Under the pieces are notes generated by a model. The model was given only the letters and a program-made list of their open reading frames with translations, was not told where the DNA came from and ran no database searches. A DNA stretch of 64,000 nt from a virus: IMG/VR virus record IMGVR_UViG_3300017991_000049, positions 64,001 through 128,000 of that record; one strand, given 5' to 3'. Made by a program: the position numbers and the translations under genes. Shown one piece after another: positions 14,808-44,695 of the stretch. How positions within the stretch are numbered: position 1 is the first letter of the stretch; every line of letters starts with the position of its first letter.

Positions 14808-14829
14808 ATTTTATTCATGAGATCAAAGT
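14808..14829. promoter_or_regulatory. AT-rich near-palindromic motif, site 1 (ATTTTATTCATGAGATCAAAGT), 3 nt from the start codon of 13995..14804
   Basis: A 22-bp AT-rich island in GC-rich DNA. Shares the ATTTTG-N10-CAAAAT architecture and TCATGA centre with sites 2 and 3. Confidence 0.5.
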
Positions 14830-14832
14830 TGA

Positions 14833-15816
14833 CTACCAGCGCCACATGCCGAAGCGCCCGTACCGGCCGCCGAAGGTACCGAAGCCGCGCTGCGCATTCA
14901 TCTGCGCCTTCTGGTGCATGACCATCTTCTTGAACTGCGCGTACTCGTCCTTCCAGGCCGAGTTGTACTCCCGATGCCGGTTCTTGTCGTCGGTCGTGGT
15001 GCCGCCAGCGCTGTGCTTGAAATGGTTACGGCGGTAGTGCTCTTCGGCCATCTGGAACAGGAACAGCTTGGTGCCGGCCGTCCAGATCTCTCTGAACGGG
15101 AACGTGAACGTCGAGTAGTTCGCCGCGTTCATGATCGGCGGCTGCTCGTTCCAGAAGTTGACCGTCCGGATCGCCGCATGGCAGATCTCCACGACACCGA
15201 AGTCGTAGTTCTCCAGCAGCTCGTTCTCGTACGGGCTGTTGTCACGGAGCGCCAGGCGCATGTCGTCGACCAGTGGTGGGCCGTTGTACGTGCTGTCGCC
15301 GCAGCAGGTCCACGCCGAATGCTCCATGTAGATGTAGACCTCGTCGGTGAACAGCAGCTCGCCGTCGGAGTTGATCGCCCCAGCTTCTGCAAACCAAATA
15401 CCAGGCTGCGTCATGACCTGGGACGGTACGACACACATGATGATGCCGTCCGCGGCAGACAGCACCGCGGCCTGGATCTGGTACGTGGTCGGGATCTTCA
15501 TCGACGCCTCGCGGAAGCGCACCATGACATGGCCATAGGTGGGGCTGGCGCTAGAGCTCGAGCTGGAGTCCAGCATCTCGAGCCCGGCGCTGCCTGAAAT
15601 GCCATAGCTGGACAGATTGACGCCGTTGCCGTCGCGATCGCGCATGATCATGCGCAAATAGACGGTCGTACCCTCTCTGGCCTTGCACGCACGCTTCTTG
15701 GTCAGCAGCTGCTCGTCGAACGCCTCGCTGATCTCCGGGATCAGGATGTCGAGGTCGTTGCACGTCTGCAGCTCGTAGGCTGTGCGCAGCCAAATCGGTG
15801 TAGCATTAACAGGCAT
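14833..15816 (-). CDS. Hypothetical structural protein (327 aa)
   Basis: Complete ORF, Trp- and Tyr-rich. Confidence 0.55.
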   Translation of the reverse strand: MPVNATPIWLRTAYELQTCNDLDILIPEISEAFDEQLLTKKRACKAREGTTVYLRMIMRDRDGNGVNLSSYGISGSAGLEMLDSSSSSSASPTYGHVMVRFREASMKIPTTYQIQAAVLSAADGIIMCVVPSQVMTQPGIWFAEAGAINSDGELLFTDEVYIYMEHSAWTCCGDSTYNGPPLVDDMRLALRDNSPYENELLENYDFGVVEICHAAIRTVNFWNEQPPIMNAANYSTFTFPFREIWTAGTKLFLFQMAEEHYRRNHFKHSAGGTTTDDKNRHREYNSAWKDEYAQFKKMVMHQKAQMNAQRGFGTFGGRYGRFGMWRW

Positions 15817-15827
15817 TGGCTAGCTCC

Positions 15828-17672
15828 TTACGAGGAGACGACGACATCTTGTGTATCCGGGCCGTACTCTCCCTGCTTGTAGTAAACGAAGGTGTACGTA
15901 TCGGCGTTGAGTCGGAACTCGTTCTCAAAGCGGCCGTTGGCATCGGTACGCGTCTCAGCGCGCACGTAGTTGCGCGTGCGGTTGCCGGCGTCGTAGTCGG
16001 TCTTGAGGTACGCCTGGACGGTAGCGTCGTCGACGGCCTGACCGCCATCAACGATGTAGGCCAGGTTGTCCGTGCCGCCGTAGTCATGGTCGACCGAAAT
16101 CGAGCCGACGCCACTGAAGCAGATCGATGCCCAGTTGGCGTCGCCGTGGGTAAGGATGTGCTCGTGCGCACAGCAGCAGGGCCACGTACGCGGCAAGCCA
16201 CATGTGAGTGCGGCAGTTGTGCCGTACCAGCAGTTGACGTTGACGCACGGCATACCGATACCGCATGCGGCTGTGCAGTTCCACAGCGACACATCCACTG
16301 CCGGAATACCAAATCCGGAGACCGGTCCCTGGTCCCAGCAGCAAACGTTGACGCTCGGGTATCCTCCGACGCCCTGGGCTGTCTGTGCGTACCACTTACA
16401 AACATCAGTTTGAAGAAGGTAGCAGCCCGGCGTATCTGAGGCAGACGCGCGCACCAGATAGCCAGCACATTCCACGGCGTTCACTACGACACACGGAAAG
16501 CCACCGAGGTCGCCCTCAGCGGTATTGCCGCGCCACTCTTCGACGTTGACGTTGGGCAGTCCTGAAACTGGATCGCCCGCAACGGCGACACCGTCCCAGT
16601 AGCAGACGTCGACGACCGGGACGCCGTTCGTGTTCACGGCATGCAATATCTGGCCGTTCCAGAGGCAGACGTCGGTGCACGGGAAGCCGTTGGCGCCCTT
16701 GGCTGTCGTGCCTTTCCATTCCGCCACGTCGACCTTCGGGAATCCGTTGATATCGATCGTGCCGCATACTTGTGTCGTGCGCCACTCCTTGACATTGACA
16801 TCCACAGTGCCACCGCTGGAAGTCTGCGACATGCTATCGCACTCTTTCCACTTCCATACCTGCATCATCGGCAGGGTTTTACCTGCCGCTGCGCCCGTAG
16901 CGCCGACGCTGGAACAGACATCGCCGCCGAGCCACTCGCAGACGTTGACGTTCGGAATACCGTTTGTATCGGACGCGACGAGTTGGGTCAGCCACTCCCT
17001 GACATTGACATCCACCGTACCGCCGCTGGAAGTCTGCGACATGCTCTCGCAGTTCTTCCACTTGCAGACCTGGATCATCGGCAGCGACTTACCGTTGCCA
17101 ATACCCAGTGTGCCGCACGTAGAGCAGACATCGCGGCCATTCCAGCACTCGACGTTGACCGGGATGTTCGGATTGGCCGCGAGGTTGGAGTAGCACCAGC
17201 ACGTGACGTTCACGCACGGACGGAAGCCGGTGACCAGGTTGTTGCTCTCCCACGCGCACACATTGACCATCGGCATCGCATCGCCGCCGAATGTGTGCGG
17301 CGTCATGACGTCAACACCCTGCCATTGGCAGACATTACCGGCCGGGATTTCGCGCAGCGATGAGATAATACCTATGGCGGTATCGGCGCCGTTGTCCGAC
17401 TGCAAGTGAACCTTGACATTGGTGCCACTTGGGACAGTGAATTGTTCACTGTGCATCTGGCCTTCTGCTGCGCCAAAGCTCGCCGTTGGCTCATGCAGAT
17501 GTAGCGGAACGCCAGCGACGCACACATCCATGGTCATGACATCGCCAGCCGGCGCGAGCGCTAAACAAACGACGGCCTCGTAGATCCCGTCGTCAGTTGG
17601 TGTATAACTGAGCAACTGACACCACGACGAGATATCCTTCGTCCCAGAATTACTGCAGCGTTGGATATACAT
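15828..17672 (-). CDS. Tandem-repeat protein with ~14 copies of a ~20-aa Trp/Cys repeat (614 aa; fibre or adhesin-like)
   Basis: Repeats follow the pattern G-[FIVLM]-P-x-V-[DN]-V-x-x-W-x-G, for example GFPKVDVAEWKG, GLPNVNVEEWRG and GIPAVDVSLWNC. Confidence 0.6.
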   Translation of the reverse strand: MYIQRCSNSGTKDISSWCQLLSYTPTDDGIYEAVVCLALAPAGDVMTMDVCVAGVPLHLHEPTASFGAAEGQMHSEQFTVPSGTNVKVHLQSDNGADTAIGIISSLREIPAGNVCQWQGVDVMTPHTFGGDAMPMVNVCAWESNNLVTGFRPCVNVTCWCYSNLAANPNIPVNVECWNGRDVCSTCGTLGIGNGKSLPMIQVCKWKNCESMSQTSSGGTVDVNVREWLTQLVASDTNGIPNVNVCEWLGGDVCSSVGATGAAAGKTLPMMQVWKWKECDSMSQTSSGGTVDVNVKEWRTTQVCGTIDINGFPKVDVAEWKGTTAKGANGFPCTDVCLWNGQILHAVNTNGVPVVDVCYWDGVAVAGDPVSGLPNVNVEEWRGNTAEGDLGGFPCVVVNAVECAGYLVRASASDTPGCYLLQTDVCKWYAQTAQGVGGYPSVNVCCWDQGPVSGFGIPAVDVSLWNCTAACGIGMPCVNVNCWYGTTAALTCGLPRTWPCCCAHEHILTHGDANWASICFSGVGSISVDHDYGGTDNLAYIVDGGQAVDDATVQAYLKTDYDAGNRTRNYVRAETRTDANGRFENEFRLNADTYTFVYYKQGEYGPDTQDVVVSS

Positions 17673-18719: not shown

Positions 18720-18989
18720 TTACTCGGGATCAGGCTCGGGGTCGGTCGCCATCTCTTCGACGTCGATGCCGCCGTATTTCAAGGCCATCGCCTTGATGTC
18801 GCCGTAGAAGTCGCGCAGGTCAGCCGCATCGTCGCCAAACTCAGCCAAAAGCGCAGCGCGCGTGTGCTGCTTGATGAGCCGGTTGATCTGGGCCAATGCG
18901 CCTGTGGCCTGACGGCTCACGCGCGTGACGATCTGGCGGATCTGGTTGGCGCCATCGGCAGCGGAATCTCGGGGGGCTACAAGTGTCAT
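18720..18989 (-). CDS. Small hypothetical protein (89 aa)
   Basis: Complete ORF, hydrophilic. Confidence 0.4.
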   Translation of the reverse strand: MTLVAPRDSAADGANQIRQIVTRVSRQATGALAQINRLIKQHTRAALLAEFGDDAADLRDFYGDIKAMALKYGGIDVEEMATDPEPDPE

Positions 18990-19105
18990 CGAAAGCTCCT
19001 TGTATGTATAGTCAAGCCGTTAGCTGGCTGCTTCCAGTCTATCAAAAAATAAGGCGGCGGCACATGCCGCCGCCTTTGGTAACGACGCTAAGACTCGGAA
19101 AACAC

Positions 19106-19513
19106 TTACTGCGTGGCGAGGCCGGTGCCATCGTCCGTGCAGGCAATGCTTTCGGAGCTGTAAGATCCCCAGCACGGGTCGGCTTGGACAAAGTCGCCGT
19201 CGACCAGCGTGATGATCTTGGTTTCGTCCTGTGTGGCATCGTACAGGTGCACTGCCGGGGTGTTGACAAGTGCCAAGACCTGGGCATACGTGCTATCCCC
19301 TGCGAGCGCCACCTGGAGCGAACGACGAGCGCGGTCATTCGGCGTGAACCGAGTGAGCCAGTGCTGGATGTCGCCCCAGACGGTCATCTCTTCGCCACAT
19401 GCCAGCCTGCGGCCGTGAGGCGGCAGGAAGCCGAAGAATTTCTCCGACGTCGACACGTTTCGGACGGTCGAGTAAAGGCACTCGACAGCCGTTGGGGTTG
19501 CAAGAAGTGCCAT
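19106..19513 (-). CDS. Hypothetical protein (135 aa)
   Basis: Complete ORF. AGGGGA Shine-Dalgarno 7 nt upstream, embedded in the recurring GCAAACCC..TATAGG element. Confidence 0.5.
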   Translation of the reverse strand: MALLATPTAVECLYSTVRNVSTSEKFFGFLPPHGRRLACGEEMTVWGDIQHWLTRFTPNDRARRSLQVALAGDSTYAQVLALVNTPAVHLYDATQDETKIITLVDGDFVQADPCWGSYSSESIACTDDGTGLATQ

Positions 19514-19518
19514 CGTTT

Positions 19519-19536
19519 ATTCCCCTATAAAGGGTT
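19519..19536. promoter_or_regulatory. Second copy of the GCAAACCC..TATAGG element (plus strand CCCCTATAAAGGGTTTGC)
   Basis: Shares GGGTTTGC plus a TATA(A/G)GGG core with the 244-270 element. Immediately upstream of the start of 19106..19513 and embeds its Shine-Dalgarno sequence. Confidence 0.35.
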
Positions 19537-19557
19537 TGCTTGTTGGGTTCCGGCTGG

Positions 19558-23618: not shown

Positions 23619-25121
23619 TTACCGAACAAAATTGGACCGTACGACCAAATCCTGCATGAATTTCGCATCAGGATCGGCCGCATGTGCTTGTAGGAAACCG
23701 AGCTGGTAGAGCGCGTAATGCTTTGCCAACTCGTCTACATTACCGGCTACAGCCACCTTGGTCATAGGCCGGCGACTGCCCAGCGGCGTCGGGTGCCGCA
23801 GCGTCGAAAGCTGCAAGCGCTGGACTACGCTCGGGCGGTCTAGCGACCATTCGGCCGCGTGTTTCAGCACCCAATGGCGCACCCGGCGTGGCGTAGGCCC
23901 GCCCGGGACGTATGGGCTGTTTCTGAGCTCCTCTTCCAGCCGCGGGTCCGTTGCCAGACGATTGTAAACGCCTGGCAGCCGGTCGGCAACTCGATCCGCG
24001 GCGGTCTTGATGCCGATGTCGTTGCCCGTCAGAAGCACTAGGAAGCTGTCTAACGGCAGCAGGCACTTCTCGTCCGACAGCGCGGTGACGACGTGCGCAA
24101 GCTTGAACGGGCCTGTGCGGACGTCTGGGGCGTCTGTACGGAGCGGCTGGACATCCGGCATGAATGACCGGTCCAGCGGCGACGGAACCTCCTCGGCGGA
24201 GATCTCGTCCTCCAGGCTGATCAGATCGCTGGCGACCTTGAGCTGGCCCACGATCTTGGGATCGGCCCAGGGGCCGTCCGCCATCAGCCACAGCGGCGGC
24301 GTCACGCCTAGCTTCTCGGCCAGATAGCCGGAGCTGCGCGTCTCGCCATACGTATCCGCAGCTGCTTTCAGCATGCCTTCGTAGTCGGCAGCGGCCTTGG
24401 CCATGCCGATCGTGTAGGCGATGCGGTCCGCCGGGCGGAAAACGTTCGAGATATCGAAGTACGACGGATTCGGGTTGAACACGCCCAGCGTCGTGCCATC
24501 GTCGAAGGTCTTGGCCAGGTTGTCCTTACAGCCGCCGTACTTGCACATCTCAGGACCGCAGTATTCTGCGCGGCTCTGCGCCTTGTTTCCGCAGCCAGAG
24601 CATTCGTCGTACGCCACACGGCATGCCATCGAAACAGGGATGTCTTCGCCGCGCGCGAGCTTCTCCATCTCTTCGTCGGCGACCAGGCCGCCGTTGCGGT
24701 CAGCAGCTTCTTTCGTACTGTTGAGCGCCACGATCAGCTCGATACGGCGCATGTCGCCGTTGTAGGCCGACGCTTTGACGATGCCACGACCCTTCTTCGG
24801 ATCCTTGTTGTCGTGGTTGCGATACCAGCGCGCGTACTTCTTGAAGGTCGGATGACACTTCTGGCACTCGGCCTCCTTGAAGCCGTCGCCGTTACGGTTG
24901 AAGCCGTAATACTCGTGCGCGCCCACGGCGATCAAATGCACCGGAACTTCACCGGGATTCAGCCGCATCGACGCCACCTTGTCGATGAATTGCACCGAAG
25001 CGCGTTTCACGAAGGCGTCCATATCGGACCCACGCAGCCCGTTACGGGCCAGCTTGATCCGCTGCGCGATCGGCTCGTGGAAGTTTTGGGAGCCGGGCGT
25101 AATGAGTTTGACGTGCGCCAT
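23619..25121 (-). CDS. Virion morphogenesis protein (500 aa; portal or prohead-protease candidate) with a Cys cluster
   Basis: Position immediately upstream of the scaffold-like and capsid genes. Cys cluster CSGCGNKAQSRAEYCGPEMCKYGGC. No family recognisable by eye. Confidence 0.5.
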   Translation of the reverse strand: MAHVKLITPGSQNFHEPIAQRIKLARNGLRGSDMDAFVKRASVQFIDKVASMRLNPGEVPVHLIAVGAHEYYGFNRNGDGFKEAECQKCHPTFKKYARWYRNHDNKDPKKGRGIVKASAYNGDMRRIELIVALNSTKEAADRNGGLVADEEMEKLARGEDIPVSMACRVAYDECSGCGNKAQSRAEYCGPEMCKYGGCKDNLAKTFDDGTTLGVFNPNPSYFDISNVFRPADRIAYTIGMAKAAADYEGMLKAAADTYGETRSSGYLAEKLGVTPPLWLMADGPWADPKIVGQLKVASDLISLEDEISAEEVPSPLDRSFMPDVQPLRTDAPDVRTGPFKLAHVVTALSDEKCLLPLDSFLVLLTGNDIGIKTAADRVADRLPGVYNRLATDPRLEEELRNSPYVPGGPTPRRVRHWVLKHAAEWSLDRPSVVQRLQLSTLRHPTPLGSRRPMTKVAVAGNVDELAKHYALYQLGFLQAHAADPDAKFMQDLVVRSNFVR

Positions 25122-26400: not shown

Positions 26401-27867
26401 CTAGGCTGACGGCTTCAGGGCATCATCGACAATGTTCTGCTTATCGGGCTTGCTCTCAGAGATACCGCGCGGCTTGCTCATCGGCGGGCCCAGCTCTCTG
26501 GCCGGGCCAGGCGCCGCGTTTGCCATCAGCTGTTGCGGCATGTCGCGATTGGTCAGCTTGCCCTCGACGTCGAGCATTTGGTCAACGTCGAACGGATCGA
26601 TCGCGGACGCTTGCTCCAGGTACTTCCGCAGCAACGCCTGCGCCATTACGCGCTGCTGCATAGCCTTGGGCGCCACTTCGGAGAGGTGGTTGTATGCTTC
26701 CATGACGGCGGCTGGGTCGTAGCCGCTGATGACCGGGTCACTGGCCATCATTTCGTGCATCATGGTCTGCATACGGATTGCGCGCAACCGATCCTCATGA
26801 TCTGGTGCGCCAAGCTCCTGCAGCTTCTCCTGGATCAGATCCTCTTTGGTCTTCGGCGCCATCTTGTTTGCGAGGCCCCGTGCAGACCCACCAACGGCGC
26901 CAGCCAAACCCAGGCCGAGCAAGCTAACCGCCTGCTTAGTCTGCGATTGATTGTCCCATACTGAGCCGGTGATCACGTCTGTCTCGGGGCTGAGGCCAAA
27001 AGGGGCGAGGGTCTCCGCGCGCTTCTCGGGCAGCTCTTTCTCGAATGCGTCGAGTTCGGCGCGGCGCTTGGCGAAGTCGGCCATGGAGTGGAGCGCTGTT
27101 TTGATCAGGCTGTAGGGCGCTTCGTCCCAGCTGACCGCGTGCGGACCCCGGGCTGGCGGGTACTTGACCGACTTGTTCATGTCGGCGGCGTGCTTAACGA
27201 GCCTACCCGCGCTCGCACCTAGCACCAGCTCGGCGTTCTTGCCAACCTCGTCCGGGTGCTGAGCGTCCGGGCGCCGGAAGTAGTCTCCGACGGCGTTGAC
27301 GTCCTCGGCGACCTTGTAACAGGCGTGCATGGCTGCATCCTTGACCCGCTGATGCTCTCTGCGGAGGTCGTGGAGCTTGGACATGGCTTGCTTGCCGGCG
27401 CGGTGTGGCTCCTCCGGATAACTCGGCATATCTTGCGAGTTATCGGCTGAGGCGACCTTTTCTCGCAACGTAGTACGAGTTATGGCCTCGGCACGGCGGC
27501 GCAGCCAGCCTCGTGGCGACAGCTTGTAATCGTCGGCGATCGCTGCCGCGGCCTTCTGCTGCGCGGGCGTTTCGATCTCAGACGGGAACATGCGCTCGAG
27601 AATCTCGCTGGCGTCAGCCAGTTCGAACGCTGCTGCCTTCTCGGCGAGCGTGTCGTGAGTACGCAGATGGCCGATGCTGCGGCCGTTGTTGAACGCGCGC
27701 ACCATGAGCCGGACCTGGCCAGCAGGGACTTTCCGCGTCGAGGCTACCTTGACGATAGCGTCGTTCGGGGCGTAGCCCTTATTGGTGAGTGCAGCAACCT
27801 CGGAAAGCGCGGCGCTGATCCGCTCCTCGCTCTCTTTGGTTAGTCTAGGAATTTTCGTCATGATCAC
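26401..27867 (-). CDS. Hypothetical protein (488 aa)
   Basis: Complete ORF, helical and charged. Confidence 0.5.
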   Translation of the reverse strand: MIMTKIPRLTKESEERISAALSEVAALTNKGYAPNDAIVKVASTRKVPAGQVRLMVRAFNNGRSIGHLRTHDTLAEKAAAFELADASEILERMFPSEIETPAQQKAAAAIADDYKLSPRGWLRRRAEAITRTTLREKVASADNSQDMPSYPEEPHRAGKQAMSKLHDLRREHQRVKDAAMHACYKVAEDVNAVGDYFRRPDAQHPDEVGKNAELVLGASAGRLVKHAADMNKSVKYPPARGPHAVSWDEAPYSLIKTALHSMADFAKRRAELDAFEKELPEKRAETLAPFGLSPETDVITGSVWDNQSQTKQAVSLLGLGLAGAVGGSARGLANKMAPKTKEDLIQEKLQELGAPDHEDRLRAIRMQTMMHEMMASDPVISGYDPAAVMEAYNHLSEVAPKAMQQRVMAQALLRKYLEQASAIDPFDVDQMLDVEGKLTNRDMPQQLMANAAPGPARELGPPMSKPRGISESKPDKQNIVDDALKPSA

Positions 27868-28804
27868 CTCGCTCTGGGAACGTGGCTGTGCTCATCAATT
27901 GACCGAGACCAGCGGGGAACTCACCCACGCCGATACCAACAAGCTCTGCAGCGCGTAATCGTACGCCCTGGGCCTCCAACTGTGCGATCTGGCCCGTAAG
28001 GCGCGTATCGCCGTCTTCGCGTGTCTTGACCAGCAGACCTTGGAAGGTGTCCACCAGTTGCTGCACGTTCTGCGTGTACGTTTCTGTGCCGATGCCAGCC
28101 TGTCCAGCCTGTGCCTCCAGCGCCAGCATGTCTTTCCATAGCGTAAGGATAAGCTCGCGTGTCTGCCAGTCGGACTTCATCGTGATCATCGTAATCGCGG
28201 CTTTGATGTCGATGGCGTCCTTCGACAAGTCCCGCATCGCGGCCCGTAGGCCGTCATGACCCTCAGTATGCCGCGGGTTGTTGAACTTGTAAGCAAGCGC
28301 GTCCAGGACGGACGGCCCGAGCCAATACCCGAACAGTTTCCACAGACAGTCGTATTCGCGCTCCGCAAGGCCTGTCTGAACCGATTTTCCGATCACCGTG
28401 TGGGTGATCAATCCGGGGGCATCGAGTCGGTCCATCACGTCGAAGAATATCCGCTCGTACAGCATGATGGCATCGATATCAATTCCTAGCTTATCGGAGA
28501 TAGCAGGAAGTGACTCTCTTGCTAGCAAGCGTGCTTCCAACTCCCACTTGTTATTGGTGTGGTCGTCGGTCGCGTCGTACAGCGAATATGCCTCGTACAG
28601 TGCTGGGTGGGCGTCAAGGGCAGCCAGCTTGTCCATATCAGTTTCGCAGCGCTGAATCAGCCGGCGGAACTTACAGGCAGCTCGAACTACCTCGTCATCC
28701 CTACCGCGGACCGGGCGCGCACCTTCGGCCAGTTCGCAGGCACGCTGCCACCGCCAGTCCGGCGGACGTCGCTTGTTATCGGGTCTGTTGACCAGGATAC
28801 TCAT
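27845..28804 (-). CDS. Hypothetical protein (~319 aa; start re-picked at M20)
   Basis: The ATG at 28802-28804 lies 5 nt downstream of the conserved AT-rich palindromic motif. The longer ORF-track start would overlap the upstream gene. Confidence 0.5.
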   Translation of the reverse strand: MSILVNRPDNKRRPPDWRWQRACELAEGARPVRGRDDEVVRAACKFRRLIQRCETDMDKLAALDAHPALYEAYSLYDATDDHTNNKWELEARLLARESLPAISDKLGIDIDAIMLYERIFFDVMDRLDAPGLITHTVIGKSVQTGLAEREYDCLWKLFGYWLGPSVLDALAYKFNNPRHTEGHDGLRAAMRDLSKDAIDIKAAITMITMKSDWQTRELILTLWKDMLALEAQAGQAGIGTETYTQNVQQLVDTFQGLLVKTREDGDTRLTGQIAQLEAQGVRLRAAELVGIGVGEFPAGLGQLMSTATFPERGDHDENS

Positions 28805-28808
28805 TTGG

Positions 28809-28830
28809 ATTTTGATCTCATGAACAAAAT
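28809..28830. promoter_or_regulatory. AT-rich near-palindromic motif, site 2 (ATTTTGATCTCATGAACAAAAT), 5 nt from the ATG at 28802-28804
   Basis: Perfect 6-bp inverted arms ATTTTG/CAAAAT around ATCTCATGAA. Confidence 0.5.
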
Positions 28831-28833: not shown

Positions 28834-29286
28834 CTAGTTCCGCTCGTTGCCGACCTCGCATTCGAGGGCGAGCTCGAACTCCAGCCCGTTGTCGTTAGTG
28901 GGCACGGTAATGTGCAGGTACACAGCGCGTACAGGCACCGTGAATGTACCCTCGCGATTGCGGTAGGACCACGGGCCGTCGTTCTCGAACAGCTCCAGCA
29001 CCACCCCCGCATTGACATTCTGGGTGGGGATGATCTTGGCTAGCGCCTGCGTCATCGGGTCCACGTCTTCAAGCGACGTCGACGAGCCGCTACCTACGTC
29101 GCAGACCTGCCGGTCAAACAGGTTGACCACCAAGGCCACAGCCGGTCCGCTGGACTGCCGCAGCAGCATGCGGGTGATGCGTCCCTCTTGCGGGAAGCCG
29201 ATCTCGAAGCACTGGCTCAACTCTCCGCCAGGCAGGTACAGCTGTGTCCCCTGGGACTCAACAAATTCACGCTTGTAGATATGCAT
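28834..29286 (-). CDS. Hypothetical protein (150 aa)
   Basis: Complete ORF. Confidence 0.45.
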   Translation of the reverse strand: MHIYKREFVESQGTQLYLPGGELSQCFEIGFPQEGRITRMLLRQSSGPAVALVVNLFDRQVCDVGSGSSTSLEDVDPMTQALAKIIPTQNVNAGVVLELFENDGPWSYRNREGTFTVPVRAVYLHITVPTNDNGLEFELALECEVGNERN

Positions 29287-31793: not shown

Positions 31794-33683
31794 CTAGGTT
31801 TTAGGCGGCCTCAACACGTCCTTCGGCCAATTCCGACCAAACTCAGTGCCCTCGGCCATAGCCGGGACAAAGCTCGTACCCTTGGTGTCGGACACAGCGC
31901 CACGATGCGTCGCGCTGAGTAGGCTTTTCTTCTGATTCGAACCCAGGAATCTGGTCATCCAGTCAGGATCATGACCGATCGAGGCCATGGCCCTGACCAT
32001 GTGCGGGCGAAACGCCGGCTCGGTGTCGTGCGCCTCGACCGACTTCACGCCGAATTCTTCGAATACTGGCAGCATTGATGGCGTTATCCGGGTGCCGATC
32101 GTGTAGTGGAGCACCGGACGCTCCAGATACTTGCCTACAGCGTACTGCGGCTCAAACTGGGCCGAACCGTCGCGTGGCTGGTATCCGCGCTCAAATTGCT
32201 GGTACGGGATGACATCGCCTGGAACGTGGCCGTCATCCTCGTCCACCATCTCTACGTGATCGATCAGTCCTCGGGCGAGCAGCTCGATGTTCCGGCGGTT
32301 GGCGTACATGCCTCCGGCTCTGTACGCGTCTGCGAAGGTGTCGACGAAGTATCTTCGTCCTTCGCCGATTCCCTTATGCTTGACAATCTCTGAAGGATTC
32401 GGGATGCCGTCGCTGATGACGTCACCGGCCTCGACTGTATCTCCTCTCTCAACTTGGAGATCAAACCCCGGGAGCACGAAGTGTCTCTGTCCGCTAATGG
32501 TAACGTACCGACCACCTGCCGGCGCATCTTCGACGGCCGTCACCTTCCCGTCGAGCTGGGCATGGGCTGCGCCTCCTTTGAAGGTTTTTGGCACTTGCAC
32601 GAGCTGGTTGACGTGTTGGAAGCCGGTGACGGACTGCGCTTCTCCTTTGACTCCACCTGAATGCTTTGAGGATAGCTGACCTTGCGTAAGCTTCTCGCTG
32701 AGTGCTTGTGCCGCCGCGACGCCAACCATGTCGCCAACCGGTGATAGGCCACCACGCTCACGTATACCAACATCACGAGAATACACCCCAGAGGCAGGCC
32801 CTCCCACCATTGGACTACGGACAAGAATACGCTTAACACCTTGATTCTCCAGGTCCTTCAAGATCTTCGGGGTAAGGACGGTGTTCCGCTCATAATCACC
32901 AGCTGGGGACGCCAACAGTGCTCCTTCACTGTCAACGTCGGTCACGTCGACTGGCAGGCCCCGTATCGGCGCTCCTTCGCCCGGTTCCTCATCGTCATCA
33001 GAAGCCGTGACGAGTAGTCGGTGTGCCAGCTGGTTAAGTTGCTTCGAGAAGAAGCCCGCATCTTGGGTCGCAAATTTCACGTCGATCAGACCCTTGCGCG
33101 CGCCATACGTAGCGGCCCAGAACTCCGCAGGCCGCAGACCCTCGGCGAAGCTTGTCTGTACTGGAAACGGAATGACGTTCTCGTGGTGATCGACATACAG
33201 CATGTCGCCGCCGATCAGGCGCTTTAGTCCGGTGATACCCTTGCCACCGCCTACAAAGCCGGACACCACCTGGTCAGCCAGCGGGTTCTTGGCCTTCTTG
33301 GCGTCGGCAAGAATCTCCTTCTGTAGCCGTTCGTGCTCGACCGCAGTCGCTTCGACGACCTTCTCTTCCTTCTTCTCCTCACTCCACTTATCGTTGGACA
33401 GGATGTCCCGGATGCGCCTGTTCAGACGCTGGCGAGACATGTGGACAGAAGGCGTTGGGCGCATATGACGCAGGCCAAAAGAACTCCCACCGGTTGTGAA
33501 CGCAACGTCTCGGCCCACGTCAGACAGGCGTTTGGAAACTTCACGGTACTTCTCCGGATGTTCCTCGGCGACTTGGCGAAGCAGCGCGCTGATGCCCTTC
33601 TTGTCCAAGACACGCGTGTAGTCACGCATATCCGACGGTAGCGCCTCGTTCACCATGAGTTGTCCGATGGTCGTACGAATCAC
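31794..33683 (-). CDS. DNA-directed RNA polymerase beta-prime subunit, C-terminal segment (629 aa)
   Basis: ATYGARKGLIDVKFATQDAGFFSKQLNQLAHRLLV matches the beta-prime/RPB1 region around the trigger loop (compare [29 protein letters not shown]). Confidence 0.8.
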   Translation of the reverse strand: MIRTTIGQLMVNEALPSDMRDYTRVLDKKGISALLRQVAEEHPEKYREVSKRLSDVGRDVAFTTGGSSFGLRHMRPTPSVHMSRQRLNRRIRDILSNDKWSEEKKEEKVVEATAVEHERLQKEILADAKKAKNPLADQVVSGFVGGGKGITGLKRLIGGDMLYVDHHENVIPFPVQTSFAEGLRPAEFWAATYGARKGLIDVKFATQDAGFFSKQLNQLAHRLLVTASDDDEEPGEGAPIRGLPVDVTDVDSEGALLASPAGDYERNTVLTPKILKDLENQGVKRILVRSPMVGGPASGVYSRDVGIRERGGLSPVGDMVGVAAAQALSEKLTQGQLSSKHSGGVKGEAQSVTGFQHVNQLVQVPKTFKGGAAHAQLDGKVTAVEDAPAGGRYVTISGQRHFVLPGFDLQVERGDTVEAGDVISDGIPNPSEIVKHKGIGEGRRYFVDTFADAYRAGGMYANRRNIELLARGLIDHVEMVDEDDGHVPGDVIPYQQFERGYQPRDGSAQFEPQYAVGKYLERPVLHYTIGTRITPSMLPVFEEFGVKSVEAHDTEPAFRPHMVRAMASIGHDPDWMTRFLGSNQKKSLLSATHRGAVSDTKGTSFVPAMAEGTEFGRNWPKDVLRPPKT

Positions 33684-34717: not shown

Positions 34718-37700
34718 CTATTCTAGGATCTCCACGCGCTGGCCGGAGCCTATTTCGCCGCGATGGTAAGCGGCAATTGCATCTTTCTTGGTCTTGAACA
34801 CGCGTGCTGGCGTGGGGTCGGCCTTCGCTGTAGCCGCCCACAGCCCGCCGACGTATTCCTTGCTCGGCGTGTAATGGACATCGAAATCGCCGACAGCCAG
34901 CAGGTTCTTGGACGGCATCAGCTTCTCTTTGGCCTCGTCCACGGCGTCGTCACTGGACGGCACGTGGAACTGCATGGCGTCACCATCGAAGTCAGCGCCG
35001 AAGCCGCCAACGGTCAGCGGCGGAATCTCCAGCGTGGATGACGATGTGAGCTGCGGCCAGAACGCCATCACGCCGAACCTGTGCAACACAGGTGCGCGGT
35101 TGATGACCACCGGCCGGGTCTGCATTTCGCTCTGTAGCTCACGCAGCGCCAGCGGGGTGCGCTCCTTAGCCTCCTCCATGGCCTTGATCTTGCCCATGCC
35201 ACGCCGTACGAGGCGGCGCACGATGAACGGCTGGTACAACGTCCACGCCTCGTCGATCGGCAGCCCGACCTGGTCCATGTCGAGGTTCGGGTTAGGCGTG
35301 ATCGTAGCGCGTCCAACGAGGTCGACGGTGCTGCCGAGCAGCTTCCGTTGTACGGTACCGAACTTCGGGCTACTGCCAAAGACATGCTTGAGGATGCCCT
35401 TGATGTCCTGCTCTTGGAACTCCGGCGAGATCGGGTTACCGAGGCCGGTCACGCCCTTGAACGCCTTGTACACGGCCAGGCGCTCGTCAGTGATGTCGTC
35501 GGTGAGCTTAGACAGGTCTTTCAGGTTCTTCGTGGCCTCGAAGACCTCTTTGTACAGGTAGTTTGCGTCGTTCACGAGCTGCGTGTTGGTATCGGCGAAC
35601 AGCGAGACCGGGCGGAACGTAGGCGGCAGCACGGGCACGCGGTCCATCATCCAGTCACCTGGGTGCTGGCCGTTCTCCTTCGCTGACTTGAGATACTGCA
35701 AGCGTCGGATCGCCTTGTCGCGGTAGGTCTTCTTACCGCTGTTCATCTCTGCACGTGCGCGCTCGATCTCCTTGTTGAGGTTGATATCCTCAAGCGCAGA
35801 CTTGATGCCCGCAGGTCCAGTTAGCTGCTCACGCCCAGGCAAGCCTTCGCGGCCAGCCAAGACCGATTCGAACTGCTTCTGCGTCAGCCCTAGGATGCGC
35901 CGGATAGGTTCTTCCATAACCGGGTTTGGCAGCGGCTCGTGCAGCTTGATATGGCTCCAACGGTTACCACCGTGGCCGCCGGTAAGCGACTCGTCGAACA
36001 GGCCGCCCTTGATCGGCGTCAGCTTGCTGATACGCCAGTCGACTGTCTGTGCGTTCTGGATTTCGCGATCGCCGGTGAGATCAACAGCGTCCGGACCGGT
36101 CATGGCCATGACTTGCAGCTGCGTGCCGGTCTTGACTGGGTTGATGCCTGCGCCCTTCAACTGCGCAACGAACTTCTCGAACATGAACGGGACCTTCGGC
36201 TCGGGCGGCGTATAGCCGGACATGAGCATGCGCCAGTAGTCCTCGTTCCGCTGGCCTCGGACGATGCTGGCGTCACGGATGGTCTTGTACGCACCGTGTG
36301 ACAGCAATGCATTCAGTTCGAGCATACCGACGCGCTTCGAGCCTGATGGTCCGCCCTTGGCAGGCTGACCCTCAGCGGTGTAGCCGCCACCGGCCGCGCG
36401 GCCTTGCAGCTTGGCCTCGGCTGTGTGGTGCAGCTTCATGATGAAGCGGTTGCCGGCATCGATGTCCTTGAGCGTGCGCCCGGTCTTCGGGTCGGTCAGG
36501 TCTTCGGTGTCCGGCAACCCGTGCTTGCGCAGTTCGCGTTCGGCGAACTCGCGGAGGTCTTTCAGGCTGCCGAAGTCTTGCAGCTTGTACGGCTTACCAG
36601 TCAGCGCGGCAATCTTACCTAGCTGGGCCTCGATGATCTGCGAGGGATTGCCCCGACCCATGATGCCGCCTGGGTTGAGTAGCACTTCGTATGGCACTTT
36701 GTCGGGACCGTGCGGCATGTCTTCGTCCGGGACGATGGCGGCCACAACGCCCTTATCGCCGTAACGTCCGGCGAACTTGTCACCAACTTGCGTGGGATGT
36801 AGGGACTTAACGACAACGGAGATACCCTTCTTTCCTTTGTGAACGTCGGTTACGGTTCCTGGCGAGTGGTGATCCCACATGATCGATGCGTTCGACCACG
36901 ACGCCTTGCGACGACCAAGCCGCGGACCCGTCTTACGCTCTTTCACGGCCAAAATCAACGGCTCGTCCATGTTCACCGTCTCGCCGACGCGCACTACGCC
37001 GTCGTCATCGTACTTCTCCAGCAGCTTCCGGTCGTATTCGCCCGGATAGATCGACATGAATGTGTTCTTGGACGCCTTGGTGCCTTCGGCAATATCAAGC
37101 TCGTGCTGGTACATGTGTTCCGAGCTAGCGCGCTTAGCGAACGACTCCGAGATTACGATGGCGTCTTCGAAGTTGTAGCCTTTGTACGGGAGGTACGCGA
37201 CGCGTGCATTTTTGCCAAGGGCAGTTGTCCCGCCTTGATCAGTGAAGTTTGAGGAGGCAAGAAGCTGGCCGGAGCGAACTTTGTCACCAGGTCGGACCAC
37301 AGGGCGATTGTGGACGAAGGTCTTTCTGTTGTAGGGGTGGTTGTCATAGAGCTCCTCGTAATGAACCTTCCGGTCCTTACCCCTGATCTTGATAGCGCTC
37401 GGCGTGACTTCCAGCACCGTACCGTCGACCTGGCTCTTCACCGCGCCCATGTCACTGCCGAGCAAGTCCTCGAACGATGTGCCTTCCATGCCCGGGACAC
37501 CAGACTGTACCAATGGCGCCTCTGCGTCCGCCATCGGCAGCGCTTGCGAAAGCATGCGGCTGCCCATAGAAACGCGCTGTGGGAACGCAGCGCCTTTCAA
37601 CGGGACCATGGATGCCAACGGGCCGAACGCCTCGGTCATGTCGGCTAGCTGGTAGTCGACGTCCTTGGCGGCGACGTACTTGAGCTTGCCTTTGTGCTGT

Positions 37701-39088
37701 GCGCGGACGTGCGGCTGCCCCGATTCAAGCTCTCCTGGAAAAGCGACGACAGCATCTGCAACATCCTGTGGTGACTTCCAGACGGTCTTGCCTGTCTTCG
37801 GATGAAGGAATCGCGAGTATATGCGTCCGTCAGGGCCTTTAAGCGTTCGGATTGATAGGCGGGAATCGATACCGATCTTGCCCGACTCTGGGGTGTGGAC
37901 AGGATCAATGAATCCAAGGTGGCTAGGTTGAACATTACGCGCCTCGTCGGGAACCGAATCGGACGACGGGATGCCGCCCTCGCCCATACGCGTTACGCGC
38001 ACGCGCTGGTCGTACAGTTCCGCTGGGTTGATTTCTTCTAGTGGATTGCCAAGCCCGGTCTCGAGGATAGCGCCTCGCACCATCTTTTGGAAGATGTTGG
38101 GCTGCAATCTGCTGAGATTACCGGGCAGCGTGGCCTTCCACAGCGCCTTACGCGCTTCGATCGCAGCCTTGTTGATGCGCTCGGCGAATAGATCCTCCGG
38201 CCCGACAGTGCGCTGGAACGCCATGGCGTCGCGGTCGTCGGCATCTTCCTCGCCCTTGTGTACGCGCAGTAGCTTCTGTGTCGACGACAGGATGACCTCG
38301 GGATCAACCTTAGCATAAGGTTTGCCGAGCGTACGCTTAGTGACCTCTGGGTCCAGTTCCATCTCGTCGAAAGCTGCACGGATAGCCTCGAACATCTCCT
38401 GGTCGTCGCCAGCAGTGCCTCTGCGGACCAGTTTCTTGTACAGCTTCTTGATCGTGCCTGGGTCGCTCTTCTGCGCATTCGCAACGAACAACTCGTTACC
38501 CCAGGCATCGCGTATCTGTCTGTCCGTGGCACCCAATGCTTTAAGCACCGGCATCAACGGCATGCGAGCTTGTCCGAACTGAATTCGAAAGATACCTGTC
38601 TCTGGGTCCAGGAAGTAGCGGTGACCAAATCCCCGTGCAACATTGACATGGGACTCTAACTCGCCGGACTCCTTGATACGAGTGAAGATCCCAGGTCGTA
38701 ACCGCATCTGGTGAGACAAGCTGTACTCGTTGCCGTTGAGGATGAACGTACCACGGGGAGTCATGTGCGGAATGCTGGCCAAGGTGACCCGCTTCTCGTC
38801 CACGACTTGCTGGGCGTCATCGTTTGTGCGCAGCTGGTATGTACCGCGCAAACGGCGGCCGAGCGAGCGGCCCTCTAGGACAGCGCGCTTCTCATCGGCC
38901 TTTGTGTATGTTTCTGGTCCGTCGTAGCCAACATTAGACAGGCCCAGTATGTATTTCTGGTTGGAGACGGGCGCCTGGTTCTGCGCCGCCGTAAGCGCAT
39001 TCTGGTAGACAGCGGCACGCGTGGCATTCACGTCACCGAATGCGCGGGCCTCTGGTGGCCCGCCTTGCATATCCAGCAGAGGATTCAT
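34718..39088 (-). CDS. RNA polymerase fusion protein: beta-like subunit fused to the N-terminal catalytic part of beta-prime (1456 aa)
   Basis: Beta motifs RGTFILNGNEYSLSHQMRLRPGIFTR, NFEDAIVISE and GDKFAGRYGDKGVVAAIVPDEDMPHGPDKVPYEVLLNPGGIMGRGNPSQIIEAQLGK. Beta-prime active-site motif GGFGADFDGDAMQFHVP near the C-terminus. Confidence 0.85.
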   Translation of the reverse strand: MNPLLDMQGGPPEARAFGDVNATRAAVYQNALTAAQNQAPVSNQKYILGLSNVGYDGPETYTKADEKRAVLEGRSLGRRLRGTYQLRTNDDAQQVVDEKRVTLASIPHMTPRGTFILNGNEYSLSHQMRLRPGIFTRIKESGELESHVNVARGFGHRYFLDPETGIFRIQFGQARMPLMPVLKALGATDRQIRDAWGNELFVANAQKSDPGTIKKLYKKLVRRGTAGDDQEMFEAIRAAFDEMELDPEVTKRTLGKPYAKVDPEVILSSTQKLLRVHKGEEDADDRDAMAFQRTVGPEDLFAERINKAAIEARKALWKATLPGNLSRLQPNIFQKMVRGAILETGLGNPLEEINPAELYDQRVRVTRMGEGGIPSSDSVPDEARNVQPSHLGFIDPVHTPESGKIGIDSRLSIRTLKGPDGRIYSRFLHPKTGKTVWKSPQDVADAVVAFPGELESGQPHVRAQHKGKLKYVAAKDVDYQLADMTEAFGPLASMVPLKGAAFPQRVSMGSRMLSQALPMADAEAPLVQSGVPGMEGTSFEDLLGSDMGAVKSQVDGTVLEVTPSAIKIRGKDRKVHYEELYDNHPYNRKTFVHNRPVVRPGDKVRSGQLLASSNFTDQGGTTALGKNARVAYLPYKGYNFEDAIVISESFAKRASSEHMYQHELDIAEGTKASKNTFMSIYPGEYDRKLLEKYDDDGVVRVGETVNMDEPLILAVKERKTGPRLGRRKASWSNASIMWDHHSPGTVTDVHKGKKGISVVVKSLHPTQVGDKFAGRYGDKGVVAAIVPDEDMPHGPDKVPYEVLLNPGGIMGRGNPSQIIEAQLGKIAALTGKPYKLQDFGSLKDLREFAERELRKHGLPDTEDLTDPKTGRTLKDIDAGNRFIMKLHHTAEAKLQGRAAGGGYTAEGQPAKGGPSGSKRVGMLELNALLSHGAYKTIRDASIVRGQRNEDYWRMLMSGYTPPEPKVPFMFEKFVAQLKGAGINPVKTGTQLQVMAMTGPDAVDLTGDREIQNAQTVDWRISKLTPIKGGLFDESLTGGHGGNRWSHIKLHEPLPNPVMEEPIRRILGLTQKQFESVLAGREGLPGREQLTGPAGIKSALEDINLNKEIERARAEMNSGKKTYRDKAIRRLQYLKSAKENGQHPGDWMMDRVPVLPPTFRPVSLFADTNTQLVNDANYLYKEVFEATKNLKDLSKLTDDITDERLAVYKAFKGVTGLGNPISPEFQEQDIKGILKHVFGSSPKFGTVQRKLLGSTVDLVGRATITPNPNLDMDQVGLPIDEAWTLYQPFIVRRLVRRGMGKIKAMEEAKERTPLALRELQSEMQTRPVVINRAPVLHRFGVMAFWPQLTSSSTLEIPPLTVGGFGADFDGDAMQFHVPSSDDAVDEAKEKLMPSKNLLAVGDFDVHYTPSKEYVGGLWAATAKADPTPARVFKTKKDAIAAYHRGEIGSGQRVEILE

Positions 39089-41767: not shown

Positions 41768-42331
41768 TCAGTTAGCAAGCATGACAGCAAAAGCAGAATC
41801 ACCTGCACGGGACAGTACGTGCATCTCACGATTATTGTCGTCTGCCCAGGTGTAAAAGTCCACTAGCAAGCTGTCAACTACTATGACGGTTGTCCCGCAC
41901 ACCAGTCGGTGGGCCAGCCGATCGAGCAGGTCGGGCACCTCGTCCTGCAGGTAGAGCAACGAGATGTGGCTGCCCTGCTTACGACGGAACGTCGTGACCT
42001 CGTCGGCGTTGGTCAGGCAGAAGATGTGCTGCTGCGGCATCGTATCGTTGAGGACGCGGCGTACAACCGCCTCCTCGTCCAACGCGCCCGCAAAGACTAC
42101 CAGGCCATCCGTGGTCGCCTGGGTGCCCATCAGCGCTACAAACCGCTCGTGTACAGCGAAATGCTCCTTTGCAGCACGGAGGTCGTCGATCGACGTGGCT
42201 GTGTCTGTAGGCAGATCGAACTTCACAGTGGACGCTTGGCGCGCTGCATGGCTTTTTCGTCTACGGTTACGCGCTGGCCCCGTAGGCCGACGACGCCCCT
42301 TCTTACGTAATCGCTTACGCCGCATTGGCAA
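41768..42331 (-). CDS. Hypothetical protein with a very basic N-terminus (187 aa)
   Basis: Complete ORF. The N-terminus (MPMRRKRLRKKGRRRPTGPARNRRRK) is extremely basic. Confidence 0.4.
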   Translation of the reverse strand: MPMRRKRLRKKGRRRPTGPARNRRRKSHAARQASTVKFDLPTDTATSIDDLRAAKEHFAVHERFVALMGTQATTDGLVVFAGALDEEAVVRRVLNDTMPQQHIFCLTNADEVTTFRRKQGSHISLLYLQDEVPDLLDRLAHRLVCGTTVIVVDSLLVDFYTWADDNNREMHVLSRAGDSAFAVMLAN

Positions 42332-43514: not shown

Positions 43515-43524
43515 CGGTCATCCT

Positions 43525-44670
43525 TTACAACATGCCGGTGATACCACGAATGGCTCCGGCGAGCAGACCAGCCCGTTGAATGCCCTTCTGCACTGGCGGG
43601 GTCAGTCCAAGGAACTTGCCGGCCAACGATCCAAGGTAACCGTAACCGTAGCCAAGGCCGGCATTGACGGCGACGGACGCTACGTCACGCGGCGACACCA
43701 AGTTTGAGCCGCGCATAGCGCCTGCTGCAGCAGGAACGCCAGCAGCAATCGCCTTCTCTGGATTGTCTAGGAACGGGTCGCGCATTACAACCTCTCCCCA
43801 CTCATTCGTGCTGAATTTCGGCAGCATGCCGCCGGAGAGGTCCGCACACTTCGTGAATGCGTCTTCGTCGATCGTGACGTTGAGTTCGCTCGTCAGCCTG
43901 TCTAGCACGTCGGCGAGTACGCTCGATGCGCCCTTCACGCGCTCGTAGTGCTGTGGGTCTGGGATCGGCCCGTACTGACCTGTGCGCACATCGTTGGCGC
44001 CGAACTCGTAACCAGCGGCGCCCGGCTTGGGCAGGTTCTCTGTGCCACGCGGATAGGCCCACTGCTTAGTCTTGCCGTCCCACTTGCCGCCAGCAGTCAA
44101 CCGGGCGACATTGGCACCAGGAGCCATGTCAGCGGCAGGGACGTTGGGTGCGTTGGCATACGCAGGGCCACCCTGTAGCGGCTGCTGTGTCCACAGGCCA
44201 CTAATACCCTGATTGCGCAACGCAGGCAGACCATGGATGAACCCAGGCACAGCTGCGCCGCCGAGCGCCCCGATCGCGCCGAACGCGGTTGGCGTGCGCT
44301 TGTTGAACCACTGCGGGAACAGCTTGTTGAGAATCCACCCGCTGCCATAGCCTAGTCCGCCAGTCAGCGCGCCGGTCAGCAGCATCGACGTGAGCGGATT
44401 GGGTCCACCGATGTACTCCTGCACCTTGCCGTGCGCATCGCCCATCTGCTTGAAACTGGGAATCATCCCGCGGAGCTTGTCCATCCAGGTAGGATCCGGA
44501 GCAGCGGCCCACTTCACCATGACCGGCCCGACCTCTTCGGTGTCGAGCACCCAGCCAGCGTCGTGATTCTGCTCGCCCTGCGTCAGCTCGTACGCTGCGC
44601 CAGCGTATTTCACGTACAGATCCTTCACGCGGAAGGGTACAGACGCCCAGTTTTGGTTGCTGTCAGTCAT
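43525..44670 (-). CDS. Gly-rich virion or membrane-associated protein (381 aa)
   Basis: Gly-zipper segments. Its start codon lies 3 nt downstream of the conserved AT-rich palindromic motif. Confidence 0.5.
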   Translation of the reverse strand: MTDSNQNWASVPFRVKDLYVKYAGAAYELTQGEQNHDAGWVLDTEEVGPVMVKWAAAPDPTWMDKLRGMIPSFKQMGDAHGKVQEYIGGPNPLTSMLLTGALTGGLGYGSGWILNKLFPQWFNKRTPTAFGAIGALGGAAVPGFIHGLPALRNQGISGLWTQQPLQGGPAYANAPNVPAADMAPGANVARLTAGGKWDGKTKQWAYPRGTENLPKPGAAGYEFGANDVRTGQYGPIPDPQHYERVKGASSVLADVLDRLTSELNVTIDEDAFTKCADLSGGMLPKFSTNEWGEVVMRDPFLDNPEKAIAAGVPAAAGAMRGSNLVSPRDVASVAVNAGLGYGYGYLGSLAGKFLGLTPPVQKGIQRAGLLAGAIRGITGML

Positions 44671-44673
44671 AGC

Positions 44674-44695
44674 ATTTTGATCTCATGAACAAGAT
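44674..44695. promoter_or_regulatory. AT-rich near-palindromic motif, site 3 (ATTTTGATCTCATGAACAAGAT), 3 nt from the start of 43525..44670
   Basis: 20 of 22 positions are identical to site 2. Intergenic. Confidence 0.5.

Follow-up and report, generated by a model that had tools for sequence, protein, structure and literature searches.

Classical MerR-type operators are characterized by an over-long spacer of 19-20 bp between the -35 and -10 elements, and the mer operator has a 7-4-7 layout. GlnR and TnrA are small MerR-type proteins devoid of a long coiled coil, which dimerise on palindromic operators of the form TGTNA-N7-TNACA. In phages, Gp36 of the lytic mycobacteriophage D29 is a MerR-like (excisionase-like) repressor that lowers the expression of genes located downstream of its sites (PMC12266134). 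The L5-type stoperators are present in many copies, in short intergenic spaces as well as in promoters, and have been proposed to halt elongating RNA polymerase, silencing downstream genes (PMC9283540). Here we analyse a 22-bp dyad that recurs in a 64,000-nucleotide stretch of viral DNA (positions 64,001 to 128,000 of IMG/VR record IMGVR_UViG_3300017991_000049; the whole stretch is called the window, and position 1 is its first letter), together with a 133-amino-acid protein encoded by the same window. The copies of this dyad are probably operators of an autoregulated, phage-encoded MerR-like dimer, which would gate transcription at module boundaries in a stoperator-like manner.

The window has a base composition of ~60% GC, nearly all of its genes are on the minus strand, and most of them are preceded by a strong Shine-Dalgarno sequence. 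The initial annotation had reported three closely similar 22-bp sites in this DNA, the first one inverted relative to the two others. When site 2 was used as a query and up to three mismatches were allowed, exactly three matches were found in the window, at the same positions (2, 0 and 1 mismatches for sites 1, 2 and 3, respectively) and with site 1 on the opposite strand; 100 dinucleotide-preserving shuffles gave no match. Site 1 (14808-14829) reads ATTTTATTCATGAGATCAAAGT on the plus strand and ACTTTGATC-TCAT-GAATAAAAT on the minus strand, which is the gene strand; site 2 (28809-28830) reads ATTTTGATCTCATGAACAAAAT on the plus strand and ATTTTGTTC-ATGA-GATCAAAAT on the gene strand; site 3 (44674-44695) reads ATTTTGATCTCATGAACAAGAT on the plus strand and ATCTTGTTC-ATGA-GATCAAAAT on the gene strand. 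A fourth, looser copy, site 4 (57219-57240, TTTTTGATCACATGATCAACTT; gene strand AAGTTGATC-ATGT-GATCAAAAA), emerged from a scan for AT-rich islands combined with relaxed patterns, and is intragenic.

Three of these four sites are in non-coding DNA, which amounts to ~4.9% of the window. Site 1 lies 3 nt past the stop codon of gene 14833-15816 and 3 nt ahead of the ATG of gene 13995-14804; site 2 lies 3 nt past the stop codon of gene 28834-29286 and 4 nt ahead of the ATG of gene 27845-28804; the spacers of both, 28-29 nt long, are almost wholly occupied by the site. Site 3 is 3 nt ahead of the ATG of gene 43525-44670. The sites had been described as ending immediately before a minus-strand ATG, and the gaps of 3, 4 and 3 nt measured here (ATG at 14804, 28804 and 44670) confirm this description. 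Two further sites were found in the same phage outside the window. One (L182:16337), ~4.5 kb before the window start, has its first position at a stop codon and shares bases with the start called for a glycosyltransferase gene; the other (L167:192), ~8 kb past the window end, is located at the stop codon of a gene for a cold-shock-domain protein, and the next gene is ~110 nt away. The first position of most sites is -1 to +3 nt from the stop codon that precedes them, and sites occur at a density of ~1 per 8-19 kb of a phage genome of ~226 kb. A half-site had also been noted at 23624-23635 (GAACAAAATTGG); it is indeed an exact 12-nt copy of an arm of site 2 plus flank, located in the last four codons of gene 23619-25121. 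It is a lone arm, as its partner is absent and no full-site match was obtained there with the position matrix described below; it may be a decayed site.

The conserved unit is the dyad A-W-T-T-T-G-W-T-C-N4-G-A-W-C-A-A-A-W-T, composed of two TTG[A/T]TC half-sites whose centres are 10 bp apart. In a set of 27 non-redundant sites, positions 4-6 and 8-9 of the arms hardly varied, while the central tetranucleotide took 15 forms. Either A or T can occupy position 7, with no dependence of one arm on the other (TTGATC in 25 and TTGTTC in 22 of the 54 half-sites); complementarity of the arms at this position is seen in just 12 of the 27 sites. The hexamer TCATGA, previously given as the centre of the motif, is not its centre, because the axis of symmetry falls between positions 11 and 12; moreover the central 4 nt vary in relatives. 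A symmetrised position matrix was built from 14 sites, and it gave scores of 30.8, 36.1, 33.7 and 28.3 bits to sites 1 to 4, respectively. In the window and the close-relative loci that were scanned first, scores were bimodal, with true sites at 24.8 bits or above and none between 15 and 24 bits; later scans added one weak match of 19.2 bits, in coding sequence (L171/L181). In 2.63 Mb of sequence from distant relatives, no match of 24 bits or more was found. In conclusion, the dyad is a specific sequence that shows the attributes of an operator bound by a dimeric helix-turn-helix (HTH) protein: inverted conserved half-sites one helical turn apart, a free centre, and enrichment in non-coding DNA.

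Several other known elements were compared with the dyad and rejected. The spacing does not fit an FNR/CRP-type box, the half-sites of parS-type centromeres are one base longer, and the Fur box does not match. An N4-like hairpin promoter was set aside as the arms are imperfect and the N4 system uses a single-subunit RNA polymerase. The footprint of a miniature inverted-repeat transposable element or of a homing endonuclease was also discarded, internal sequence and target-site duplication being both absent.

No GenBank phage matched the window at the nucleotide level (megablast, 19 kb of the window), and at the protein level the sole cultured relatives, with ~30% identity, are Salmonella phage Arash and Vibrio phages D69, D148 and D181. 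In IMG/VR, 99 stretches encode relatives of the capsid protein; 80 loci, on contigs of up to ~235 kb, were kept for comparison. The dyad recurs at orthologous gene boundaries in ~10 related uncultured phages. The orthologue of site 1 in L019:1413 is the reverse complement of the window copy and lies 1 nt before the ATG. This inversion supports the earlier proposal of a dyad-symmetric site. Another orthologue of site 1, L031/L032:16045, reads AATTTGTTC-CTAA-GAACAAAAT. Site 2 has one orthologue with the centre AGCT (L108:1870) and one with the half-sites TTATTC/GAATAA, which is followed by a Shine-Dalgarno sequence and lies 11 nt from the ATG (L031:1425). The orthologues of site 3 (L111:3043, L162:19095 and L171:19908) are each 1-4 nt before the ATG of the same gene, whose product starts with MTDS.

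Close relatives differ by gain and loss of dyad sites. Ahead of the orthologue of gene 19106-19513, the window (19514-19557, minus strand) and L108:11395-11470 have in common the element CCCT(T/C)(T/A)TATAGGGGA(T)AA, and in the L108 phage an additional dyad is inserted directly upstream of it. The sole mid-gene site found, L019:9097-9118, lies in a gene whose window counterpart (8565-9761) carries no dyad. An exact-pattern scan of IMG/VR with a 17-mer returned 28 single matches, all due to chance except the one in L019, and scans of IMG/VR with gene 43525-44670, with the small gene 41768-42325 (a poor choice of query), with the regulator alignment and with a His-phosphatase alignment returned nothing.

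Site 4 occupies codons 3-9 of gene 56846-57247 (minus strand), which has a GTG start and a Shine-Dalgarno sequence, AGGAGG, at 57254-57259. It encodes a 133-amino-acid winged-helix protein of MerR/GlnR-TnrA type. Pfam MerR_1 matched residues 15-82 below its gathering score (E=0.017), a profile search of the PDB gave GlnR over residues 11-80 (E=0.022), the orthologue P0005 matched NCBIfam TnrA (E=0.005), and the Joint Genome Institute (JGI) name of one orthologue is 'DNA-binding transcriptional MerR regulator'. An AlphaFold2 model made with 11 orthologue sequences had a predicted local distance difference test score (pLDDT) of 71, and of 85-91 over residues 11-40 and 54-82. When this model was compared with the PDB by Foldseek, nearly all of the 50 matches listed were MerR-superfamily DNA-binding domains. 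GlnR-DNA complexes were the best of them (TM-score of 0.62-0.71, normalised to GlnR), many of the matched MerR domains had been solved on palindromic promoter DNA of ~22 bp, and BmrR on a 22-bp promoter site was among the matches listed. The N-terminal part of the protein is thus a winged HTH of the MerR type. Neither a long antiparallel coiled coil nor a C-terminal effector domain was seen in the model, which after residue 85 has short helices and a beta-hairpin of low confidence, and the C-terminal half gave no Pfam or NCBIfam domain.

A search of the protein collection yielded 11 close orthologues and 3 distant homologues of the 133-amino-acid protein. The dyad was present at codons 2/3-9 in all ten distinct orthologues for which DNA is available, with different centres. 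Eight orthologues, with pairwise amino-acid identities of 52-76%, were aligned by codon; third codon positions were invariant in five of the five arm codons, vs 9 of 120 others, and the centre codon was variable. This freezing of third positions in the arms shows that selection acts on the nucleotides as well as on the peptide. The two distant homologues with DNA start with MDL and have neither the dyad nor the 9-amino-acid N-terminal extension in which it lies; the presence of this extension solely in dyad-carrying orthologues suggests that gene and site have co-evolved. In addition, every sufficiently long contig that carries the regulator gene also carries intergenic sites (L162, L169, L170 and L171). 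The presence of the dyad in ten of ten orthologues, the frozen arms and the intergenic sites on regulator contigs together form the pattern typical of an autoregulated factor with its regulon. In the initial annotation, an operator for a ribbon-helix-helix or an HTH protein encoded by this DNA had been proposed; conserved arms, a variable centre, free orientation and a MerR-type gene that carries the motif in all ten cases agree with the HTH half of this proposal, while no ribbon-helix-helix protein was detected by Pfam among the window proteins.

The sequence upstream of the regulator gene suggests where its transcription starts. An extended -10-like element, TGcTATCAT (57266-57274, minus strand), is present in the 30-nt spacer upstream of the gene and is kept as TGnTAnnAT in the orthologues. 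If this element is, as its sequence suggests, part of a promoter, the dyad is likely to lie ~45-65 nt downstream of the transcription start of the regulator gene. Other features were observed in the same region. A hairpin is located directly upstream of the regulator Shine-Dalgarno sequence in L166:~990-1015 and L169:~9960-9985 and in L170, L171, L175 and L177, with apparent compensatory changes (for example CAGGCAGT-CATA-ACTGCCTG vs CAGCCA-CAGT-TGGCTG); this 5' untranslated hairpin is absent from the window copy and from L162. Further upstream of the regulator gene, L166:~843-866 contains a perfect 20-bp palindrome, TTGTTCCCGATCGGGAACAA, with the half-sites TTGTTC/GAACAA and an 8-nt GC-rich centre, and another palindrome, GCCCGATCGGGC, is found nearby. 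Finally, the intragenic dyad is directly followed by an ATG in L162:10026-10031 and by a TTG in L166:~1054, at the position where the distant homologues start (MDL). Possibly the start codon of the regulator gene formerly came right after the dyad, as at sites 1-3; alternatively, translation of this gene may begin at two positions.

Verrucomicrobia have an experimentally defined LexA box, TGTTC-N4-GAACA, and in V. spinosum a single substitution in either arm abolishes LexA binding (PMC4951493). The dyad has the same spacing, and the core is identical in its best palindromic copies: L031:16045 (TGTTC-CTAA-GAACA) and L108:1870 (TGTTC-AGCT-GAACA) match the LexA core exactly, by a consensus which is Verrucomicrobial and may not be that of the host. 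A different protein could accordingly bind the dyad, a LexA-type repressor of the host being the leading candidate and another phage factor a second one; the MerR-like gene would then be a target and not the source of the binder, and its co-occurrence with the dyad would also be expected if it were merely a conserved target. A GC content of ~60% fits Verrucomicrobial hosts, but the contigs of relatives that are found in metagenome-assembled genomes are misbinned and point to many unrelated phyla. Furthermore, 25 of the 54 half-sites have TGATC and not TGTTC, each of sites 1-3 has at least one non-canonical arm, and on both sides of the 14-bp LexA box conservation reaches 4 nt further (A-W-T-T ... 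A-A-W-T). The window yielded no S24/LexA-like gene, and the dyad lies in an extension that is specific to the carrying orthologues, which suggests co-evolution. The LexA alternative is weakened by these observations, and we consider recognition of the dyad by a protein other than the MerR-like one to be unlikely.

Another possibility is that the dyad acts in RNA, as an AU-rich intercistronic hairpin that would be a processing or stability element, or would bridge stop and start codons for re-initiation in the absence of a Shine-Dalgarno sequence. In most cases, an upstream stop codon and a downstream start codon flank the dyad at a distance of 0-4 nt, and copies that are perfect palindromes have stable folds (-9 to -13.7 kcal/mol, z down to -3.4). 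However, sites 1-3 fold like shuffled sequence (-3.7 to -5.2 kcal/mol, z from -0.8 to +0.25), and no covariation was seen: the variable pair 7/16 is mismatched in 15 of the 27 sites, indicating that pairing is not maintained, and the core arms are fully complementary in just 11. The inversion of a site, as between the window and L019, alters the RNA sequence, no Rfam family matched the dyad, and neither the copy at L167:192 nor the intragenic copy of the regulator gene suits a stop-start bridge. A function as an RNA hairpin therefore appears highly improbable. In sites 1-3, the ATG at the centre opens a mini-open reading frame of 6-7 codons which ends on or just past the downstream start codon, a property that would suit re-initiation. 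These mini-open reading frames (minus strand, 14819-14796, 28819-28799 and 44685-44662) end a few nt past the start codon, except that of site 2, which ends in an ATGA-type overlap. Because the centres vary, neither the central ATG nor the frame that it opens is conserved; a conserved leader mini-open reading frame was therefore rejected, and the frames are probably incidental.

We favour, as stated above, the use of the dyad as an operator of the MerR-like protein. The product of gene 56846-57247 would bind through its GlnR/TnrA-like winged helix as a dimer, with one monomer on each arm. At sites flush with stop and start codons, located at junctions between gene blocks of a one-direction, terminator-poor genome, the bound dimer would be a repressor or a roadblock that stops initiation at the downstream block or read-through into it, while binding in the sequence encoding the N-terminal extension of the regulator would exert negative feedback. 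The outcome would be the timed or limited expression of a small regulon. We presume here that the effect is repression, rather than activation or an architectural role.

Several observations weigh against this model. The sequence matches with MerR and GlnR/TnrA are weak (E ~0.005-0.02), so that they assign the protein at the level of the superfamily only, and its C-terminal half is poorly modelled, with no dimerisation element identified in the predicted structure. The regulator was not found for the contigs behind L031/L032, L108/L019 and L111 in two IMG/VR pattern scans, whose peptide patterns were possibly too strict. An operator located 45-65 nt past its own promoter differs from classical MerR binding in the -35/-10 spacer, and one site, of 28.9 bits (L019:9097-9118), is in the middle of a coding sequence, the orthologue of window gene 8565-9761. 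Lastly, the sites are closely associated with starts devoid of a Shine-Dalgarno sequence, which could mean that the sites act on RNA or on initiation.

A broader proposal is that, in this jumbo phage with its own polymerase, symmetric MerR-type 'stoperators' at stop/start junctions split the ~226-kb genome into temporal blocks, and that an operator placed in the 9-codon extension partly dictates the sequence of the protein. We regard this proposal as doubtful, though not far-fetched. In a bolder variant of it, the dyad followed by AUG would be a protein-gated translation start that dispenses with a Shine-Dalgarno sequence.

The genes downstream of sites 1-3 encode proteins of 269 (13995-14804), 319 (27845-28804) and 381 amino acids (43525-44670), all on the minus strand, without family assignment; Pfam, PHROG, NCBIfam and cultured phages gave no match for any of them, and they are not paralogues of each other. 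The first has a CxxCxGxG zinc-finger-like motif, the second is located where the RNA polymerase block meets the head-gene block, and the third is Gly-rich with hydrophobic segments. The N-terminus of the first, MPLT, is kept in L019 with synonymous changes. None of the three genes has a Shine-Dalgarno sequence. It had been suggested that the sites leave little room for a canonical leader, which is true of the window (gaps of 3-4 nt) and nevertheless misleading: the same genes are devoid of a Shine-Dalgarno sequence in relatives that lack the motif, hence this absence is ancestral, predates the motif and was not caused by it. In these distant relatives, the site 2 gene has orthologues whose start overlaps the preceding stop codon (TAATG, translational coupling), and the orthologues of the site 1 gene are 5-7 nt behind a TATAAT. 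The case calls for caution, since a motif found at starts without a Shine-Dalgarno sequence resembled a promoter, and comparison with relatives was what revealed that the genes had lacked this sequence before the motif arrived.

The relatives also contain a family-wide element made of a GC hairpin, a T-run and the invariant AGCTATCAG, of which 51 distinct contexts were collected, most of them following a T-run (examples are L069:16709, L070:17244, L088:8360 and L111:3002). AGCTATCAG is often followed by 8-11 nt (or 18-19 nt), a TATAAT-like hexamer, 5-7 nt and an ATG without Shine-Dalgarno sequence, and in relatives the element marks the boundaries of transcription units. It looks like a terminator-promoter cassette that yields leaderless mRNAs, and perhaps is the promoter of the phage sigma factor. 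The window has a single copy of the T-run followed by AGCTATCAG, at 44705-44719 (minus strand), 9 nt upstream of site 3, and sites 1 and 3 coincide with positions of terminator/promoter modules in relatives. The sole strong intrinsic terminator in the 40 kb scanned is elsewhere, at 19051-19076 (minus strand; 11-bp GC stem and T-run). It is followed by GATAGACTG and by a promoter-like TTGACT...TATACA, ahead of gene 18720-18989. Transcription units seem to be very long.

The phage encodes a multisubunit RNA polymerase, in which beta and the N-terminal part of beta' form a single protein of 1456 amino acids (34718-39088, minus strand) and the remainder of beta' is a separate protein of 629 amino acids (31794-33683, minus strand). 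A sigma-70-like protein gave a weak match (2731-3471, minus strand); it is divergent, with regions 3-4 alone detectable, and its gene is 30 kb from the polymerase genes. The virion of the related phage Arash contains RNA polymerase subunits and a sigma factor, and the Arash promoters have not yet been described (PMC10585845). In the initial annotation the dyad had been considered as a possible promoter for this machinery, and a compact promoter that gives leaderless or near-leaderless mRNAs would account for the position of the dyads against the ATG of genes devoid of a Shine-Dalgarno sequence. Promoters of that layout do seem to occur in this family, as the orthologue of gene 13995-14804 in distant relatives is preceded by AGCTATCAG-N8-11-TATAAT-N5-7-ATG, and a sigma-70-like sequence, TAGTCA-16-TAAAAT, overlaps site 1. 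However, the dyad is symmetric and found in either orientation at orthologous positions, one conserved copy is intragenic, and the distance to the ATG ranges from an overlap (L182:16337) to ~110 nt (L167:192), with intermediate values of 1-4 nt and of 11 nt, the latter with a Shine-Dalgarno sequence in between (L031:1425). With CAAAAT or TAAAAT as the -10 element, transcription would start beyond the ATG, and this holds for the only sigma-70-like reading obtained. Moreover, the genes at the site 2 position in relatives are translationally coupled, with no promoter, and sigma-70-like matches in the region are within about two standard deviations of the shuffle expectation. That the dyad is itself a promoter is very unlikely, and an operator for the MerR-like regulator is the preferred reading.

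The genome of this phage is ~226.6 kb long. Besides those described above, the window encodes a capsid-like protein, nucleotide-metabolism enzymes, sulfotransferases and glycosyltransferases; no tRNA gene was found in it, and no Rfam family reached its gathering score over the whole window. Matches with Serglycin were artefacts of the Gly-Ser linkers used to concatenate query proteins. A cluster at 58266-63886 (minus strand) contains two tandem Sulfotransfer_4 paralogues, glycosyltransferases of families 2 and 25 and more transferase-like genes, to which the versions of relatives add CTP-transferase, epimerase and heptosyltransferase genes; its composition suggests an elaborate glycan or sulfate modification of the virion, the DNA or the host surface. 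In a protein of 1350 amino acids (45404-49456, minus strand), a LigD-type 3'-phosphoesterase domain is found together with an ATP-dependent DNA ligase domain, and near its gene another one (50234-51607) encodes a protein of 457 amino acids with 2H-phosphoesterase and inorganic pyrophosphatase domains.

This phage is a member of a large uncultured family whose genomes measure 150-235 kb; hardly any gene in it has an assigned function, and its regulation is uncharted. A defined regulator-operator pair is a first handle on the way in which a one-directional genome is subdivided, and through it a handful of genes can be named as a co-regulated set. With 133 amino acids and 22 bp, the pair would also make a compact orthogonal repressor/operator part that can be tested directly in Escherichia coli.

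Compared with the systems described at the outset, the dyad shares with the stoperators of cluster A mycobacteriophages, bound by repressors of the L5 gp71 type, the repetition of one short site along the genome in intergenic positions, here in short intergenic spaces along co-directional operons. Stoperators, in contrast, are 13-bp asymmetric sites that function in one orientation only and are bound by a monomer with two DNA-binding domains, whereas the dyad is 22 bp long and free in orientation, with a MerR-type protein as the candidate binder; an asymmetric, orientation-bound site and a monomeric two-domain repressor were both missing here. Stoperators are also far more numerous than the dyads, and nothing in the present data indicates a temperate phage. 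D29 Gp36 is similarly a small phage-encoded protein of the MerR superfamily with specific sites in its own genome; its sites are GC-rich direct repeats and it oligomerises weakly, unlike the AT-rich inverted repeat found here.

The classical activators MerR, CueR and BmrR have in common with the candidate regulator the winged-helix fold and a comparable dyad layout of their operators. They differ from it by an effector domain and a coiled coil, neither of which was recognised in the 133-amino-acid protein, and no -35/-10 pair that would frame the dyads was found by eye or with a sigma-70-like pattern scan. The protein is rather akin to the minimal 'MerR-like' members of the GlnR/TnrA/BldC type. 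GlnR and TnrA of Bacillota are its best matches in sequence and in structure; they differ in half-site sequence, in spacing, in their C-terminal half and in their role, which is nitrogen regulation. The phage family is unexplored and this regulator-operator pair is new, but it is of a familiar kind, that of ordinary phage gene control. Its one unusual detail is the presence of an autoregulatory operator within an N-terminal coding extension of the regulator gene.

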